Shown in pieces: positions 4,989 to 43,406 of a DNA stretch of 43,406 bases. How positions within the stretch are numbered: position 1 is the stretch's first letter; each line of letters begins with the position of its first letter. Made by a program: the position numbers and the translations under genes. Below the pieces are notes generated by a model. It did no database searches. It was not told the DNA's origin and saw only the letters and a list, made by a program, of their open reading frames with translations. Source of the stretch: an uncultured archaeon (GTDB lineage: Archaea > Iainarchaeota > Iainarchaeia > Iainarchaeales > Iainarchaeaceae); the NCBI GenBank assembly GCA_964372565.1, contig CAYJRH010000001.1:1-43406 (forward strand). The letters are read 5' to 3'.

Positions 4989-7900
4989 GTGGTTATGGAG
5001 TACCTCAAGGAAGTGAAGGAAGTCGTTGCGGCAATCGTGCCGAAGGAAGCCGAGGTCACCTTGGTGGACCTCGAGGGCCCTGAAATCGCAATCTACACAA
5101 AGAAGCCGAAGGTTTTCCACGACAACGAGGATTACGTGCGCGCAATCGCGCACCAGCTGAAGAAAAAAGTCAACATACGCGGCGACAAGTCATTGCTTAT
5201 AGATGAGAACGAGGCGCGCGAAAAGATAATGAAGATCGTGCCTGAAGGCGCGAAAATCTCGGACATACAGTTCACCGAGGCGTTCAGCGAAGTCGTCATC
5301 GAGGCGCTGAAGCCGGGGCTTGTGATAGGCAAGGGCGGAATGACGACAAAGGAAATAATCCTGCAGACGGGCTGGACCCCGAGGATCCTGCGCAGCCCGA
5401 CATCGCCGAGCGAAATCCTCAAGGGCATCAGGCACCACCTCGTGAAATACGCGCCCGAGCGCAAAAAGATACTCCAGGAAACGGCGAAGAAGATTTATTC
5501 CGAGAAGCCCGCGCCGAGCTGGATAAGGCTCACGCCGCTTGGCGGGTTCAGGCAGGTCGGAAGGAGCTGCATAATGCTCGAAACCCGCCGCACCAAAATC
5601 CTTTTGGATTGCGGAATCAACGTTGCGGCACAAGCCCCCGAAGACGCTTACCCCTTCCTTGATGCGATACGCTTCCCGATAAACGAGCTGGACGCTGTTG
5701 TGCTTAGCCACGCGCACATGGACCACTGCGCATTCATCCCATACCTCTTCAAGCTCGGCTATCGCGGGCCCGTGTACCTCACAGAGCCAACGCGCGACCT
5801 CGCGGCGCTCCTGCTCTTCGATTACCTCGACATACTCGCAAAGGACAACAAGGAGGCGCCGTACAGCGAGCGCGACGTGAAGGAAATGCTCAAGTACTGC
5901 ATTGTGCGCGACTACCGCGAGGTAACGGACATAGCGCCCGACATGAGGCTCACTTTCCACAACGCGGCGCACGTGCTCGGCAGCGCTTCGGTGCACCTGC
6001 ACATAGGAGAGGGCGCCCACAACTTGGTGTATTCTCTTGACCAAAAAACTCCGATTACGGTTTTTGACAAGGATGGAAACATGGAAATATGCGGAATAGG
6101 GAAACTTGTCGACAGGGAAATAAAAAAATTCGGGGTCGGAAACGGCTTTGTGGAGGAGGCAGCTAATTTTAGCGGCTGGAAAACTATTGCGTTCAATCCC
6201 CAAACATTAAAGTCTGAATTAGTGGACATAACCTCTTTCATAAGGCACCCGGTAAACGAGGATTTGTTTGAGATATCCACTTCAACCGGAAGGAAAACCA
6301 CGGTGACTGGCTCCCATAGCGTGTTTATGGTGAAAAATGGCAAAGTTGAAAGTGCCATGGCGAAAGACCTGCGTTTGGGAGATTACATCATAGGCTCGAA
6401 AAATCTTGATTTGACTCAAAAGAAACCGCTTATAAAACTGGAAAAAAATGCTTTTGCGCTCAAGTATAGTGGAAAAGAACTTGGGCTTGTTTTGGAAGCG
6501 TTAAGCGGAAAACTGCAAAAATCTTTCCCGCTTCAAGCTGAAAAAATAACGCCTTGGATAAAGGACAGGCTGGAAAATGGGATGTATGAAAACGCGATAG
6601 CGAAAAAGTACGGCGTTTCGCGAAAAACGGTCAGAAAGTATTTTAAAAAACTCGGGATAGGGAAGAATCCAAGGGTAAAAAATGCCTTTCCGGCAGAGGT
6701 GGAAATAACTGCGGGTTTTGCAAGGTTCTTGGGATACTTTATATCTGAGGGGAGCGTCAACAGAAATACCGTAATCATAACGCAATACCGCAAGGAAATG
6801 CTTGAAGACGCAATAGAAATCATAAAATCTGCCTTTGGCATTAATGGAAAAATAGTGAAATACGAAGCGCAATTCTATTCAAAGCAACTTTGCATGTTGC
6901 TGAAGAAAACTCTAAAGTGCGGGGCTAATGCATATGTTAAAAGAATGCCCAAAGGGCTGGCTTTGGCTCCAAAAGAAGTGATTTCTGAATTCCTGAAAGG
7001 GTATTTTATGGGTGACGGTTCTTTTAGGGTCAGGAAAAACGGCAAAGGCATTTCCATAAACGCCGCCTCCAAAAGCAAATTTTTAATTCAGGAAATAGGA
7101 TTCCTGCTTTTGCGCCTTGGCATTGCCCCGACGTTCGAATACAATAAGAGCAGCAAAATGCACAATGTTCATGTCTATGGCAGAAAACAGTTAGAGGTTT
7201 TTTTGTCTAACGCAAAAATCCCGGAGTGGGAAAAGAAACTTTCGGCAAACCCTTCAATCAAAGAAAAAAGCCATTTTGCGGACCGCCTGCCAATCAAGGC
7301 CCTTTCAGAGCAAACACGGGGCGTTTTAGGCAAGACTTCGTGGCAAAACGCCAAATGCTGCGGCAACACGCTTTTAATGAAATTCGGCTGCGGCGACCAT
7401 GAAAAAAAGCTGGTGGAATCGGATTTGATGCTGGATGAAATTGCAAATATTAGGAAAGTGCGGCCAACCGGCAATTACGTCTACGATTTTTGCGTAAAGG
7501 GGTACGAAAACTTTTTGGGCGGCATCGGGCAATTATTCATGCATAACAGCGCGGACATCAAGTACGGGTTCACGAGGCTTTTCAACAACGTTGACATCAA
7601 CTACCCGAGGATTGAAACCCTCATTGTCGAGAGCACTTACGGGGGCAAGGATGATATTCAGACAGCGCGCGAGGAAACCGAGGCGAAATTGCTGCGCGTG
7701 ATACAGGAAACCGTGAACCAGGGCGGCTCCATACTGGTGCCAGTGTTCGCTGTCGGCAGGGCGCAGGAGCTGCAACTTGTGATCGAGAATTTTTACCGCA
7801 AGGGATTCATAGACTCGGAGGTCAAAGTGTATGTTGACGGCATGACAAAGGAAAGCTCGGCAATACACACCGCTTATCCTGAGTATCTGCGCACGGGCGT

Positions 7901-8408
7901 GCAGAAAAGGGTCCTGCAGAACGACTCGCCATTCACTTCGGACATTTTCCAGGTTGCGAAGCCCGAGGATAGGGATTCGATTTGCCAGAACGGAAAGGTG
8001 ATAATCCTTGCGTCGAGCGGAATGCTGACCGGAGGCGCGAGCGTCCAGTACTTCTACAGGCTGGCCGAGAACCCAATTAACACAATTGCGTTTGTCGGTT
8101 ACCAGGGCGAAGGCTCTTTGGGCAGGAAAATCGTGAGCGGCGTGAAGAGCATACCGATTACGGACAATGGCGGGAGGACAAGGAAGCTCAGCATCAACAT
8201 GCGCGTGGAGCGCCTTGACGGTTTTTCAGGGCACTCGGACAGGATGCAGCTCTCAGCTTATGTGCGCAACCTCAAGCCGAAGCCGAAGCGCATACTGACA
8301 GACCACGGCGAAGCGGAGAAATGCATTGATTTGGCGAAGCACTTCTCGCAGAAGTTCGGGATTAGCTCGCAGGCGATAAGGAACCTGGACAGCGTAAGGC
8401 TGAAGTAA
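4989..8408 (+). CDS. fttA: archaeal CPSF1/FttA-type beta-CASP ribonuclease (2 KH + metallo-beta-lactamase + beta-CASP), interrupted by a 505-aa intein
   Basis: The N-terminal KH region carries VIGKGGMTTKEI, and the MBL motif is VLSHAHMDHCAF. NAAHVLGSAS...HIGEGAHNLVY is followed by the intein and then SADIKYGFTRLF, with the C-terminal beta-CASP/MBL ending in GFSGHSD. Extein length is 634 aa. The start is GTG 4989 or ATG 4995. Confidence 0.93.
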   Translation: MVMEYLKEVKEVVAAIVPKEAEVTLVDLEGPEIAIYTKKPKVFHDNEDYVRAIAHQLKKKVNIRGDKSLLIDENEAREKIMKIVPEGAKISDIQFTEAFSEVVIEALKPGLVIGKGGMTTKEIILQTGWTPRILRSPTSPSEILKGIRHHLVKYAPERKKILQETAKKIYSEKPAPSWIRLTPLGGFRQVGRSCIMLETRRTKILLDCGINVAAQAPEDAYPFLDAIRFPINELDAVVLSHAHMDHCAFIPYLFKLGYRGPVYLTEPTRDLAALLLFDYLDILAKDNKEAPYSERDVKEMLKYCIVRDYREVTDIAPDMRLTFHNAAHVLGSASVHLHIGEGAHNLVYSLDQKTPITVFDKDGNMEICGIGKLVDREIKKFGVGNGFVEEAANFSGWKTIAFNPQTLKSELVDITSFIRHPVNEDLFEISTSTGRKTTVTGSHSVFMVKNGKVESAMAKDLRLGDYIIGSKNLDLTQKKPLIKLEKNAFALKYSGKELGLVLEALSGKLQKSFPLQAEKITPWIKDRLENGMYENAIAKKYGVSRKTVRKYFKKLGIGKNPRVKNAFPAEVEITAGFARFLGYFISEGSVNRNTVIITQYRKEMLEDAIEIIKSAFGINGKIVKYEAQFYSKQLCMLLKKTLKCGANAYVKRMPKGLALAPKEVISEFLKGYFMGDGSFRVRKNGKGISINAASKSKFLIQEIGFLLLRLGIAPTFEYNKSSKMHNVHVYGRKQLEVFLSNAKIPEWEKKLSANPSIKEKSHFADRLPIKALSEQTRGVLGKTSWQNAKCCGNTLLMKFGCGDHEKKLVESDLMLDEIANIRKVRPTGNYVYDFCVKGYENFLGGIGQLFMHNSADIKYGFTRLFNNVDINYPRIETLIVESTYGGKDDIQTAREETEAKLLRVIQETVNQGGSILVPVFAVGRAQELQLVIENFYRKGFIDSEVKVYVDGMTKESSAIHTAYPEYLRTGVQKRVLQNDSPFTSDIFQVAKPEDRDSICQNGKVIILASSGMLTGGASVQYFYRLAENPINTIAFVGYQGEGSLGRKIVSGVKSIPITDNGGRTRKLSINMRVERLDGFSGHSDRMQLSAYVRNLKPKPKRILTDHGEAEKCIDLAKHFSQKFGISSQAIRNLDSVRLK
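6033..7547 (+). mobile_element. intein (505 aa) with a LAGLIDADG homing endonuclease, inside aCPSF1
   Basis: It starts SLDQKTPITV (Ser1) directly after ...HNLVY. Block B is VTGSHSVF (TxxH). The LAGLIDADG motifs are FLGYFISEGSV and LKGYFMGDGSF. Block F/G is VYDFCVKGYENFLGGIGQLFMHN, followed by Ser +1 (SAD...). The segment looks AT-richer than the flanking extein by eye. Confidence 0.9.
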
Positions 8409-8556
8409 TGCGAAGCACGGCCCATTGAGCCACAAGGCCAGATAGCCCCCGCCCTTCCGAAGCGGAATACGAAATGGCGAAGCCACCGCCAGCCGCAGGC
8501 TGGCGCCCCGCCCTTCCGAAGCGGAATACGGACTGGACAGCCTAAGGCTTAAGTGA
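8385..8556 (+). repeat. imperfect 24-nt direct duplication of the aCPSF1 3' terminus flanking a 124-nt element
   Basis: CTGGACAGCGTAAGGCTGAAGTAA (8385-8408, the real gene end, LDSVRLK*) matches CTGGACAGCCTAAGGCTTAAGTGA (8533-8556, would read LDSLRLK*) at 21 of 24 positions. Confidence 0.8.
8447..8530 (+). repeat. two exact 25-nt direct repeats with a 59-nt period
   Basis: CCCCGCCCTTCCGAAGCGGAATACG occurs at 8447-8471 and again at 8506-8530. Each copy contains the mini-hairpin TTCCGaagCGGAA. The 34-nt spacer contains the hairpin CGCCAGCcgcagGCTGGCG. Confidence 0.85.
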
Positions 8557-8568
8557 ATTTTTAATAAA

Positions 8569-9288
8569 CTATTTTTTAATGAAGATAAATCCGCCATTTG
8601 TGTCTGCCACATCAAATTCTGGAAAAAACAGCCTGAGCGTTTTTATTGCCGTGGCGGGAAAATCCAAGAATTGAATTGAACTTACTCTTATAGAACCTTT
8701 TGGCCTGAGCGCCGGTTTCAAGTGTTCCACAATAAGCGCCAGGTAATTCACGCGGTTATCAGGATAGCCCGTATCGTGCATTCGAGCCAAATCACGCCTG
8801 TTTTTTGCGGTTGCAGAATCCATGAAAAATGACTGGGGAACAAGTATGTGGTCATACGATTCCTTCCCAAAATCACGTTCCAGAAAATTGCCCCCCAGAA
8901 TGCGAAGTTTTCCTTTTTTCAGCAGGCTGAAAACCGTGCGTGTAAGAGGGGCTGATACCGCCCTGCCAAATTCATAATCGAGAATAGTGTAATTTTCAGG
9001 CCTGATTTTGCTTCTTTTCAAAATGAATTCCGTTAGCCTGCCGGAGCCTGCGCCAACTTCAAGAATTTTTGTATTAGGGCCTAGTGAATCAAGAAAACGC
9101 TGCCCGATTTTCAGTTCAACCGAATGCCTGCTTGGCGGGAACATGTCATACTCTTTTGCGACCCGTATCCGCTTAAGTGTTTTTTGACGGCGTTCCCAAA
9201 TTTGCTCTGCATCAGCGCCAATTGGGCCGTGCAATCCCCATTCCGGAAGGGTTTCGCGCCGCCTTTTGCCAGTTCCAGGGACCCGCAT
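8569..9288 (-). CDS. class I SAM-dependent methyltransferase (predicted)
   Basis: Motif I is KILEVGAGSGRLTEFIL, followed by an acidic residue after beta-2 (TILDYEF). The size fits a Rossmann-fold methyltransferase. Substrate is unknown. Confidence 0.6.
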   Translation of the reverse strand: MRVPGTGKRRRETLPEWGLHGPIGADAEQIWERRQKTLKRIRVAKEYDMFPPSRHSVELKIGQRFLDSLGPNTKILEVGAGSGRLTEFILKRSKIRPENYTILDYEFGRAVSAPLTRTVFSLLKKGKLRILGGNFLERDFGKESYDHILVPQSFFMDSATAKNRRDLARMHDTGYPDNRVNYLALIVEHLKPALRPKGSIRVSSIQFLDFPATAIKTLRLFFPEFDVADTNGGFIFIKK

Positions 9289-10024: not shown

Positions 10025-10309
10025 GTGGGCCAAACGCTTGTCAGGCTGGAAAAAGCGCATGAAAAGATTGTCAGGGGCCTGCTTGATAGCGGGCTTTACA
10101 AGACAAAAAGCGAGGCAATCCGTGCCGGGATCCTGGAACTGGGGAAGCAATACAGGCTTGTGGGGTTTTACGAAGGCATGGAGATAAAACAGGTAATCGA
10201 CCCGAAGATAATAAGGAAACTCCAGAAAGTGCCAAAAGCCGATAAAGGCAAGTTTGAAACGCTGGCAGAAGTGAACAAAAAATACGGGTTCGCCCCAGAA
10301 ACTCGATGA
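10025..10309 (+). CDS. ribbon-helix-helix (CopG/Arc/MetJ-type) antitoxin-like protein
   Basis: GQTLVRLEKAHEKIVRGLLDSGLYKTKSEAIRAGILELGKQY shows the beta-strand, helix, helix layout. The start is GTG, with a TATA-like CTTTATATAT about 35 nt upstream. It is followed by relE. Confidence 0.75.
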   Translation: MGQTLVRLEKAHEKIVRGLLDSGLYKTKSEAIRAGILELGKQYRLVGFYEGMEIKQVIDPKIIRKLQKVPKADKGKFETLAEVNKKYGFAPETR

Positions 10310-43341: not shown

Positions 43342-43406
43342 ATGAAGACGCTTGCGAGTGCCGAATCCGACGCGCATGTCGGAGTGCGAAGCACGGCCCA
43401 TCGAGT
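43342..43406 (+). CDS. possible start of a further ORF (partial), or a repeat element
   Basis: ATG 43342 directly follows the stop at 43341 and reads MKTLASAESDAHVGVRSTAHR... The segment 43385-43405 is a near copy of non-coding sequence at 8409-8429, so coding status is doubtful. Confidence 0.2.
   Translation, partial: MKTLASAESDAHVGVRSTAHR

Follow-up and report, generated by a model that had tools for sequence, protein, structure and literature searches.

In repetitive extragenic palindrome (REP) systems with a REP-associated tyrosine transposase (RAYT), the gene for this Y1 HUH protein is flanked by the repeats. Fungal mitochondria harbour GC clusters and double-hairpin elements, tiny G+C-rich hairpins that have spread in compact genomes, nest and settle at gene borders; these elements make short target duplications or none at all. 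Mobile open reading frames (mobile ORFs) of fungal mitochondria, known in Allomyces atp6 and in Glomus atp6, atp9, cox2 and nad3, create gene hybrids in which an inserted C-terminus is followed by the mobile ORF and then by the native C*-terminus (PMC3630166). Here we analyse a 43,406-nt stretch of DNA (the window; contig CAYJRH010000001.1) from an uncultured archaeon of the Iainarchaeota (DPANN), in which the 3' end of the aCPSF1/FttA gene is present twice, on either side of a 124-nt insert. This insert consists of two head-to-tail ~60-nt units of a dispersed, multi-copy family of hairpin repeats, and it was probably acquired right after the aCPSF1 stop codon in an event that duplicated the last 24 nt of the gene.

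We refer to the source genome as G000, to its contigs by C numbers (C1 being the 43-kb contig with the aCPSF1 site) and to the genomes of relatives as G001 and so forth. Similarly to the prokaryotic MITEs (miniature transposable elements with inverted repeats), REPs and bacterial interspersed mosaic elements reviewed in PMC10969869, the units are small (~60 nt), non-coding, multi-copy, hairpin-forming and often arranged head-to-tail; they sit at gene ends and inside operons, have no transposase of their own and break short-read assemblies. Like MITEs they are polymorphic for presence and absence, with 43 units and empty orthologous sites in relatives. Unlike MITEs, they have no terminal inverted repeats, the target stretch that is duplicated, instead of being short and of fixed length, is long and varies between 0 and about 54 nt, and no related insertion sequence or transposase with matching ends was found when the Y1_Tnp element of C95 and the TnpB of C32 were compared. 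With REP/RAYT systems they share imperfect palindromes clustered at gene ends; they differ in that no RAYT-type (Y1 HUH) gene is flanked by units or co-occurs with them, and in that their 3' module is a covarying two-helix (pseudoknot-type) motif and not a simple palindrome. The G+C-rich hairpin modules, their spread, their nesting and their gene-border sites recall the fungal GC clusters and double-hairpin elements, but those elements belong to another domain of life and have no sequence relation to the units. No comparable archaeal element is listed in the review of prokaryotic MITEs (PMC10969869), and a full-text literature search returned nothing on repeats in Iainarchaeota/Diapherotrites. 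The family belongs with the small non-autonomous hairpin repeats and is new in its footprint.

Two units of a dispersed repeat family behind aCPSF1

The aCPSF1 gene occupies positions 4989-8408 of the plus strand; its ORF, whose last 286 aa include Beta-Casp and RMMBL domains, ends at the functional stop codon TAA (8406-8408). Direct reading places the last seven codons and the stop (LDSVRLK*, CTGGACAGCGTAAGGCTGAAGTAA) at 8385-8408 and a displaced copy (LDSLRLK*, stop TGA, CTGGACAGCCTAAGGCTTAAGTGA) on the same strand at 8533-8556, out of frame with aCPSF1 (offset 148 nt). The two copies match at 21 of 24 positions and differ by GTA->CTA, CTG->CTT and TAA->TGA; orthologues in relatives, read at their 3' ends, terminate in LDS[VL]RL[KR]*. 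When three mismatches are allowed, the 24-mer is found at these two places only, with 0 occurrences expected from 100 dinucleotide shuffles, which confirms the duplication and the three differences reported by an earlier reading made from the letters alone (the sequence-only reading).

The stretch separating the two copies, 8409-8532, is 124 nt long and non-coding. Two exact occurrences of the 25-mer CCCCGCCCTTCCGAAGCGGAATACG lie in it, one at 8447-8471 and the other at 8506-8530; at 94% identity the repeat can be followed over 31 nt. Each occurrence has a TTCCG-AAG-CGGAA mini-hairpin, and the 34-nt spacer between the two holds a 7-bp hairpin, GCCAGCC-GCA-GGCTGGC, at 8488-8504. All of this agrees with the sequence-only reading; its description of the segment as a single small repeat-bearing element had to be given up, since the insert resolves into a tandem pair of units from a multi-copy family, and the conserved 3' modules of this pair are the 25-nt repeats. 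Unit a (8409-8473, plus strand; nhmmer match 8409-8472, E 9e-11) has the 5' box TGCGAAGCACGG, then a central hairpin that is degenerate, and lastly the 3' module at 8447-8473; its first 21 nt are found again at 43385-43405 and on other contigs. Unit b (8474-8532, plus strand; nhmmer match 8477-8532, E 6e-9) begins with two small hairpins, a GTGGC-like one at 8476-8487 and the GCCAGCC-GCA-GGCTGGC hairpin already mentioned, followed by the second, identical 3' module. Unit b is 87-88% identical to C2:34622-34701, and its initial ~19 nt recur at this C2 locus only. The displaced gene end directly abuts the 3' end of unit b.

A copy search with the 124-nt insert, as the sequence-only reading had proposed, returned 25 matching places in G000. 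A census with an nhmmer profile built from 14 hand-picked units found at least 43 units (E<=0.01) in this draft, which has 1.06 Mb in 103 contigs and is 87% complete. A unit lies within 150 nt of 20 contig ends, and five units adjoin N gaps; the true copy number is therefore above 43. One of these contig ends is that of the window itself, where a repeat search finds the start of another family unit at 43385-43406 (plus strand), after the 3' end of a further unit (GAATCCGACGCGCATGTCGGAG). Tandem clusters of hairpin units are present on C1, C2, C10, C12, C25, C40 and C84, and a second dimer laid out like the aCPSF1 insert lies at C2:34623-34736.

The units share a common anatomy. The 5' part is a box (T)GCGAAGCA(C/A)GG with GCGAAGC, the middle is a hairpin of changing sequence in which pairing is retained, and the 3' part is a conserved module GC(G/T)CCCTTCCGA-N8-9-TCGGA, sometimes extended by CG(G/C)RAC(N)GTTG. 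Units start with TGCGAAGCA and end with TCGGA (or with AACNGTTG); the two termini are not inverted copies of each other. The motif CTTCCGA-N8-9-TCGGA occurs 34 times in G000 as compared with 0-8 times in each of 120 relatives of the order, while reversed-pattern controls gave 0-4 per genome: the family is present in Iainarchaeota relatives and is strongly expanded in G000. A unit on C33 of G000 is 95% identical to a G003 unit at a non-orthologous locus (flanking genes, 74-79%), and two G000 units are only one base apart; both observations suggest that spread has been recent. Six viral contigs contain a 17-mer of the 3' module; their flanks are unrelated and unlike units, and we discarded them as chance matches.

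With 19 units of two genomes as input, RNAalifold predicted the central hairpin; 7 of its 11 predicted pairs show compensatory changes, and orthologous central hairpins of G000 and G003 differ by paired changes (GCCTGT/ACAGGC versus CCGTC/GACGG). In the 3' module two helices covary: S1 pairs GC(U/G)C with G(A/C)GC, and S2 pairs UCCGAN with NUCGGA. Across 33 distinct 3' modules, 95.5% of cells are paired as compared with 20-52% in slid controls, and the covariation score was reached by 0 of 500 shuffles. Because the 5' arm of S2 sits within the S1 loop, the two helices, if formed together, would make a compact H-type pseudoknot. At the aCPSF1 site this candidate pseudoknot is present in both exact repeats: in the first module (8447-8471, plus strand) S1 pairs 8449-8452 with 8462-8465, and S2 pairs 8456-8461 with 8468-8473 with two mismatches, while the identical second module (8506-8530, plus strand) has one mismatch in S2. 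S1 is intact in both.

As to orientation, 25 of 31 genes within 150 nt of a unit point the same way as the unit, and transcripts of operons and 3' regions are therefore predicted to contain the units in sense orientation. Gene orientation was taken from a codon-usage gene caller, as an open-frame test is uninformative at 51% GC. The energies of single-unit folds are slightly lower for the antisense strand (-28.9 versus -27.1 kcal/mol for the sense strand). Folding of the 124-nt insert, also proposed by the sequence-only reading, gave a sense strand that folds slightly better than its shuffles (z -2.2) and a z score of -1.0 for the antisense strand; taken together, the folds do not clearly favour either strand.

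Could the segment then be a functional RNA or 3' untranslated element of aCPSF1, or a CRISPR-like mini-array of 25-nt repeat, 34-nt spacer and repeat, without any insertion? The covarying structure, the putative sense orientation of units in transcripts and the sense-strand z score are what such a reading would predict, and the spacing resembles a one-spacer array. We nevertheless consider it highly improbable: the segment is absent from the aCPSF1 3' ends of ~25 relatives, the 34-nt 'spacer' is conserved at the C2 locus (~87%), no Cas1 was found in the draft, and Rfam yielded no match at E<=10 at the aCPSF1 site, CRISPR-DR families included, and none at canonical units.

An assembly artefact is less probable still, and we regard strain mixing or a mis-join across a repeat as extremely unlikely. 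G000 is a fragmented metagenome bin, and units break its assembly at 20 contig ends. However, the apparent assembly k, inferred from the 55-nt overlaps that flank every 100-N gap, is 55. A collapse or join artefact at aCPSF1 is unlikely because neither repeat at this site (24 and 25 nt) reaches the length of k and because the site lies deep within the 43-kb contig; moreover, the same architecture appears in independently assembled relatives. The exact 55-nt repeats spaced exactly 100 bases apart elsewhere in the genome (e.g. C3:5693-5747/5848-5902) are scaffolding gaps and not biological repeats.

Several side observations concern the surroundings of units. Units end exactly at +1 of tRNA genes at C4:8343-8411 and C92:163-220 of G000 and on C49 of G003, where the abutting unit would form a 5' leader removed by RNase P. 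On C5 of G003 (266-380), in the orthologue of the C7 unit of G000, a ~50-nt double hairpin with stems closed by ATA loops is nested in the 3' hairpin loop, a mini-element of another kind having been inserted there.

Empty sites and a recurrent duplication footprint

Insertion at aCPSF1 is demonstrated by the relatives. The 3' end of the gene is empty in 18 of the 19 relatives read, the gene running straight into unrelated DNA, and in all eight metagenome loci. Contig scans of metagenomes and of genomes with the aCPSF1 C-terminus, carried out for strains of the same species, recovered only species that had already been seen, all with empty sites. The layout of gene end, insert and degenerate gene end proposed by the sequence-only reading is thus real. 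A conserved 3' untranslated region with neither empty sites nor further copies, which that reading had named as the observation that would speak against it, was looked for, and the comparisons returned the opposite.

The single exception, G021, belongs to another genus of the family. Here aCPSF1 ends in TTGGACACGGTACGCCTGAAGTGA, followed by ~150 nt and then by CTGGACACTGTAAGGCTCAAATGA; the ~150-nt insert consists of a purine hairpin and one unit of the same family. The same 24 nt are duplicated as in G000, with LDTVRLK* encoded twice and all differences between the copies synonymous. This insertion is independent of the one in G000.

The footprint is not peculiar to aCPSF1. At least 10 further loci in G000 and relatives carry ~13-54-nt duplications at gene ends, gene starts and tRNA ends. 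In G000 the duplication measures 17 nt on C9 (LEYR*/LEYK*), 22 nt between TrpB and TrpA (C16), 36 nt on C17, 42 nt on C7, 27 nt between rpoB'' and rpoB' (C94/C78), 13 nt on C46 and about 50 nt at the HMG-CoA reductase gene (C28). It is 19/19 between TrpE and TrpG (C52/C16), where it spans an ATGA stop/start overlap, 14 nt on C33, where it spans a ribosome-binding site and start, and 17/17 at a tRNA 3' end on C10. Further cases were found in G003 (C57, C38, C31), G006, G001, G007 and G009. Flanking duplication lengths across loci are 0, 12, 13, 15, 17, 19, 22, 24, 27, 36, 42 and about 50-54 nt; some insertions lack a duplication, e.g. on C24 of G003 behind a tRNA, and some footprints are young and perfect (19/19, 17/17, 15/15). 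The sequence-only reading is supported in so far as it saw at aCPSF1 an insertion that keeps the ORF whole through duplication of its end, and the footprint is repeated at many loci.

The geometry is regular. The downstream copy always abuts the exact 3' end of a unit, the upstream copy with its stop usually ends at a unit 5' end, and the two ends of the insert are always defined unit termini. Microhomology between unit 3' end and target amounts to 0-3 nt, with one case of 5-6, at the 16 junctions inspected by eye, and is not clearly above chance. An apparent 23-nt duplication on C96 was rejected, as it really consists of tandem type-B units and a 12-nt copy of a tRNA 3' end.

Other sites are polymorphic as well. 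The TrpB/TrpA, TopoVI and L39e/L31e sites are empty in every relative examined, and the C9 site is ~62 nt shorter in the single relative compared. The rpoB''/rpoB' junction (end of C94 and C78:1-60 in G000) is a hot spot, and at least 8 of the 11 family genomes have hairpin units at it; a second rpoB'' end is present there in G000, G006, G001 and G007, and the site is empty in G010. The adjacent spacer between rpoB' and rpoA' holds hairpin units in G000, G003, G005 and G012, and in genus g4 it contains a small ORF starting MMNLKPGKL (26 aa on C38 of G009; ~72 aa and hydrophobic on C56 of G013).

Direct repeats of a gene 3' end that bracket an insert and leave the gene intact are the classical footprint of attachment (att) sites, as in the attL/attR duplications of tyrosine-recombinase elements, and the sequence-only reading had suggested an att site or the scar of such an element. 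That the aCPSF1 insert is an attL/attR scar of a site-specific integrative element, whose cargo was deleted to leave short internal repeats, now seems to us very unlikely. Units are found at dozens of unrelated targets with duplications of 0 to about 54 nt, without integrase or cargo, and between the repeats there are only family repeats ending at defined unit termini. Only one tyrosine recombinase gene was found in G000, on a different contig from aCPSF1, along with one TnpB. To our knowledge, a 124-nt insert is also far smaller than any known integrative element. The larger cassettes of G000 (0.5-3 kb), which are flanked by 30-65-nt repeats including tRNA ends, do fit an att footprint, but they contain no units. 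This applies to the toxin-antitoxin cassette at 34.4-35.3 kb, to which the sequence-only reading had likened the aCPSF1 site: the bracketing footprint is the same, and the cassette lacks units.

Imperfect direct repeats of 44-65 nt, with spacings between 242 nt and 1.6 kb, flank eight further inserts of G000, and no hairpin units lie between these repeats (C2:33197/33769, C5:21990/22878 at a tRNA end, C6:8902/10600, C19:4873/5172, C22:11261/12382, C23:3530/4988, C26:1496/2838 and C14:15849/16779). Together with the toxin-antitoxin and DUF3800 cassettes, these unit-free inserts suggest a general duplication footprint of newly acquired DNA in G000.

Origin of the second gene end

The account we consider likely is that the tandem pair of units was inserted right after the aCPSF1 stop codon, that the last 24 nt of the gene were duplicated locally as the target, and that one copy then decayed. 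In this scheme an enzyme acting in trans would carry out the insertion, and the duplication would be made at that moment, through a staggered break that is then filled in or through some equivalent kind of copying. The upstream copy would complete a working aCPSF1, while the downstream copy would stay with the original A/T-rich 3' context as a leftover with up to three later substitutions. Unit b would have been added second, copying 25 nt of the 3' module of unit a. A long, variable target duplication (~13-54 nt) would be the usual footprint of the family and, in a gene-dense genome, the surviving insertions would be those that leave both neighbours intact because the duplication takes in a stop codon, the signals at which the next gene starts, or the end of a tRNA.

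At aCPSF1 the evidence points this way. Neither version of the gene end was found within two mismatches in the 195 other genomes of the order, so that the copies are mutually nearest among 196, and relatives of the same genus share the upstream base at two of the three positions where the copies disagree, with the remaining position ambiguous. Since the copies are mutually nearest and two of the three changes are placed in the downstream copy, the locus fits local target duplication followed by decay. Furthermore, the two 3' modules of a dimer match perfectly on C1 (25/25) and on C2 (26/26), with several differences between the two loci; these non-coding duplications are locus-specific and were therefore made locally.

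Older loci are harder to reconcile with this account. The 11 gene-end pairs differ at 67 bases, and every downstream copy retains its stop. Among their 53 differing codons, 14 are nonsynonymous as compared with 39.7 +/- 3.1 expected, and in seven a synonymous codon was switched at more than one base (Ser TCN/AGY, Arg CGN/AGR, Leu) where 0.41 such switches are expected. The expectations come from 1500 simulations that start from identical copies, with the downstream copy neutral and the upstream copy accepting synonymous changes only; none reached the observed nonsynonymous count or the observed number of codon switches. A simple history of duplication and decay fails to predict the synonymous-biased divergence of these loci. 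Context adds to the difficulty: the downstream copy of the HMG-CoA reductase end overlaps the ATG of the next gene (ATGA) exactly as at the empty sites of G008 and G009, and the downstream TrpB copy likewise retains its native ATGA overlap; at both genes the upstream copy resembles a different allele. The synonymous bias and these native overlaps together favour an insert arriving with its own gene end. Moreover, a duplication range of 0 to about 54 nt is unlike that of any fixed-stagger transposase, and no enzyme has been found. The sole Y1 (IS200-like) transposase gene of G000, on C95, is not flanked by units, and across 121 genomes Y1 genes do not co-occur with units: they are absent from the unit-bearing G001, G007 and G013 and present in many genomes without the unit motif. 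C95 bears no units, and the ends of its Y1_Tnp element and of the C32 TnpB are unrelated to those of units. Cas1 and reverse transcriptase were not found in the 87%-complete draft either.

The C95 gene has features of its own. It is a diverged Y1 gene (C95:310-780, 46 bits) with G+C-rich flanking hairpins, one of which, AGGGGC-GAA-GCCCCT, is built on the same GCGAAGC mini-hairpin as the 5' box of the units; similarly low-scoring Y1 genes are present in ~10 other genomes of the order.

These points bring in an alternative that we hold to be unlikely for aCPSF1, if clearly less so than an att scar: the units came in along with a substitute for the last codons, the gene having recombined with an allele from another strain or lineage that bore the element, in which case the join would be homologous on the gene side and blunt at the unit 3' end, and the downstream copy would be the displaced native end of the resident. 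Fungal mitochondrial mobile ORFs are a precedent (PMC3630166), with the same order of functional end, mobile insert and displaced second end, and several loci of our family resemble them in having mainly synonymous end differences and a downstream end in native context. They differ in their cargo, the insert here being ~60-124 nt of non-coding hairpins with no homing endonuclease ORF. The coding-type divergence of the 11 pairs, reproduced in 0 of 1500 simulations, is what this alternative would predict, and the HMG-CoA reductase gene gives its best case. Its end is duplicated (~50 nt) around a unit both in G000 (C28:~10090-10250, minus strand) and on C57 of G003; the units are not the same in the two genomes, and the boundaries are offset by 3 nt. 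The downstream copy in G000 is near the consensus of relatives and shares its overlap with the empty sites, whereas nearly all codons of the upstream copy are recoded: by hand count, ~89% of the downstream and ~78% of the upstream copy are identical to the G008 gene end (whole-gene identities to relatives, 66-79%). Yet a sliding-window comparison of this gene shows no switch of nearest relative and no breakpoint. At TrpB the downstream ATGA overlap is as in G003, G001 and G006 while the upstream tail differs, and the downstream copy on C7 is itself followed by a further unit in G000 and G003, which fits serial displacement.

The inserted end is accordingly more distant from relatives than the displaced end at HMG-CoA reductase (hand count), and the same is suggested at TrpB; at aCPSF1 the relation is the opposite. 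Here, unlike in the mobile-ORF hybrids, the two ends are closest to each other among the 196 genomes and the upstream copy is closer to relatives, the downstream copy having the derived state for at least two of the three changes. Carried gene ends are also difficult to square with the locus-specific, locally made 25/26-nt duplications of non-coding modules nested within the inserts, and with the several young footprints that are identical (19/19, 17/17, 15/15). With only three differences, the aCPSF1 locus needs neither a foreign gene end nor overwriting, and local target duplication followed by decay remains our preferred reading of it. At older loci the insert may sometimes bring its own gene end from another lineage, or the upstream copies may later have been overwritten by recombination with other alleles; under the preferred reading, the coding-type divergence of such copies would stem from exchange with alleles of other lineages.

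Two explanations at the level of expression were considered and set aside. RNA splicing via a bulge-helix-bulge is not compatible with boundaries that are direct repeats and not complementary, and for both splicing and ribosome hopping the upstream copy already ends the protein.

Flanking features and implications

Downstream of the displaced gene end lies a 12-nt, mostly A/T spacer (8557-8568, ATTTTTAATAAA; direct reading). It is likely the native terminator context of aCPSF1, judging from the T-runs that relatives have soon after the aCPSF1 stop. The spacer leads to a convergent ORF of 239 aa (8569-9288, minus strand; taken from the ORF list) with a weak methyltransferase-like Pfam match below the cut-off. 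This ORF was overlooked by the codon-usage gene caller trained on G000, and it may be foreign or fast-evolving.

Taken further, the units might constitute a class of DPANN mobile elements that encode no protein and have so far gone undescribed, which either copy a long, variable stretch of their target or carry a replacement gene terminus between lineages, and whose sense-strand pseudoknot would act in the host transcript, e.g. as a 3'-end protection or processing signal. We put this forward tentatively, as a possibility rather than an expectation. If true, it would imply a transposition or homing mechanism that matches no known transposase family.

DPANN genomes have almost no intergenic DNA and yet take up new DNA. 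The family described here shows one route of such uptake: the insert comes with a second copy of a gene end, a gene start or a tRNA end, and neither neighbour is broken. Duplications of this kind may be mistaken for att sites, frameshifts or pseudogenes, and assemblies break up at the repeats. As small relics of former alleles, the displaced ends could serve to time insertions and recombination. Finally, should either the mode of insertion or the covarying 3' pseudoknot turn out to be new, the family would add a type of mobile element and a structured RNA motif to archaeal biology.

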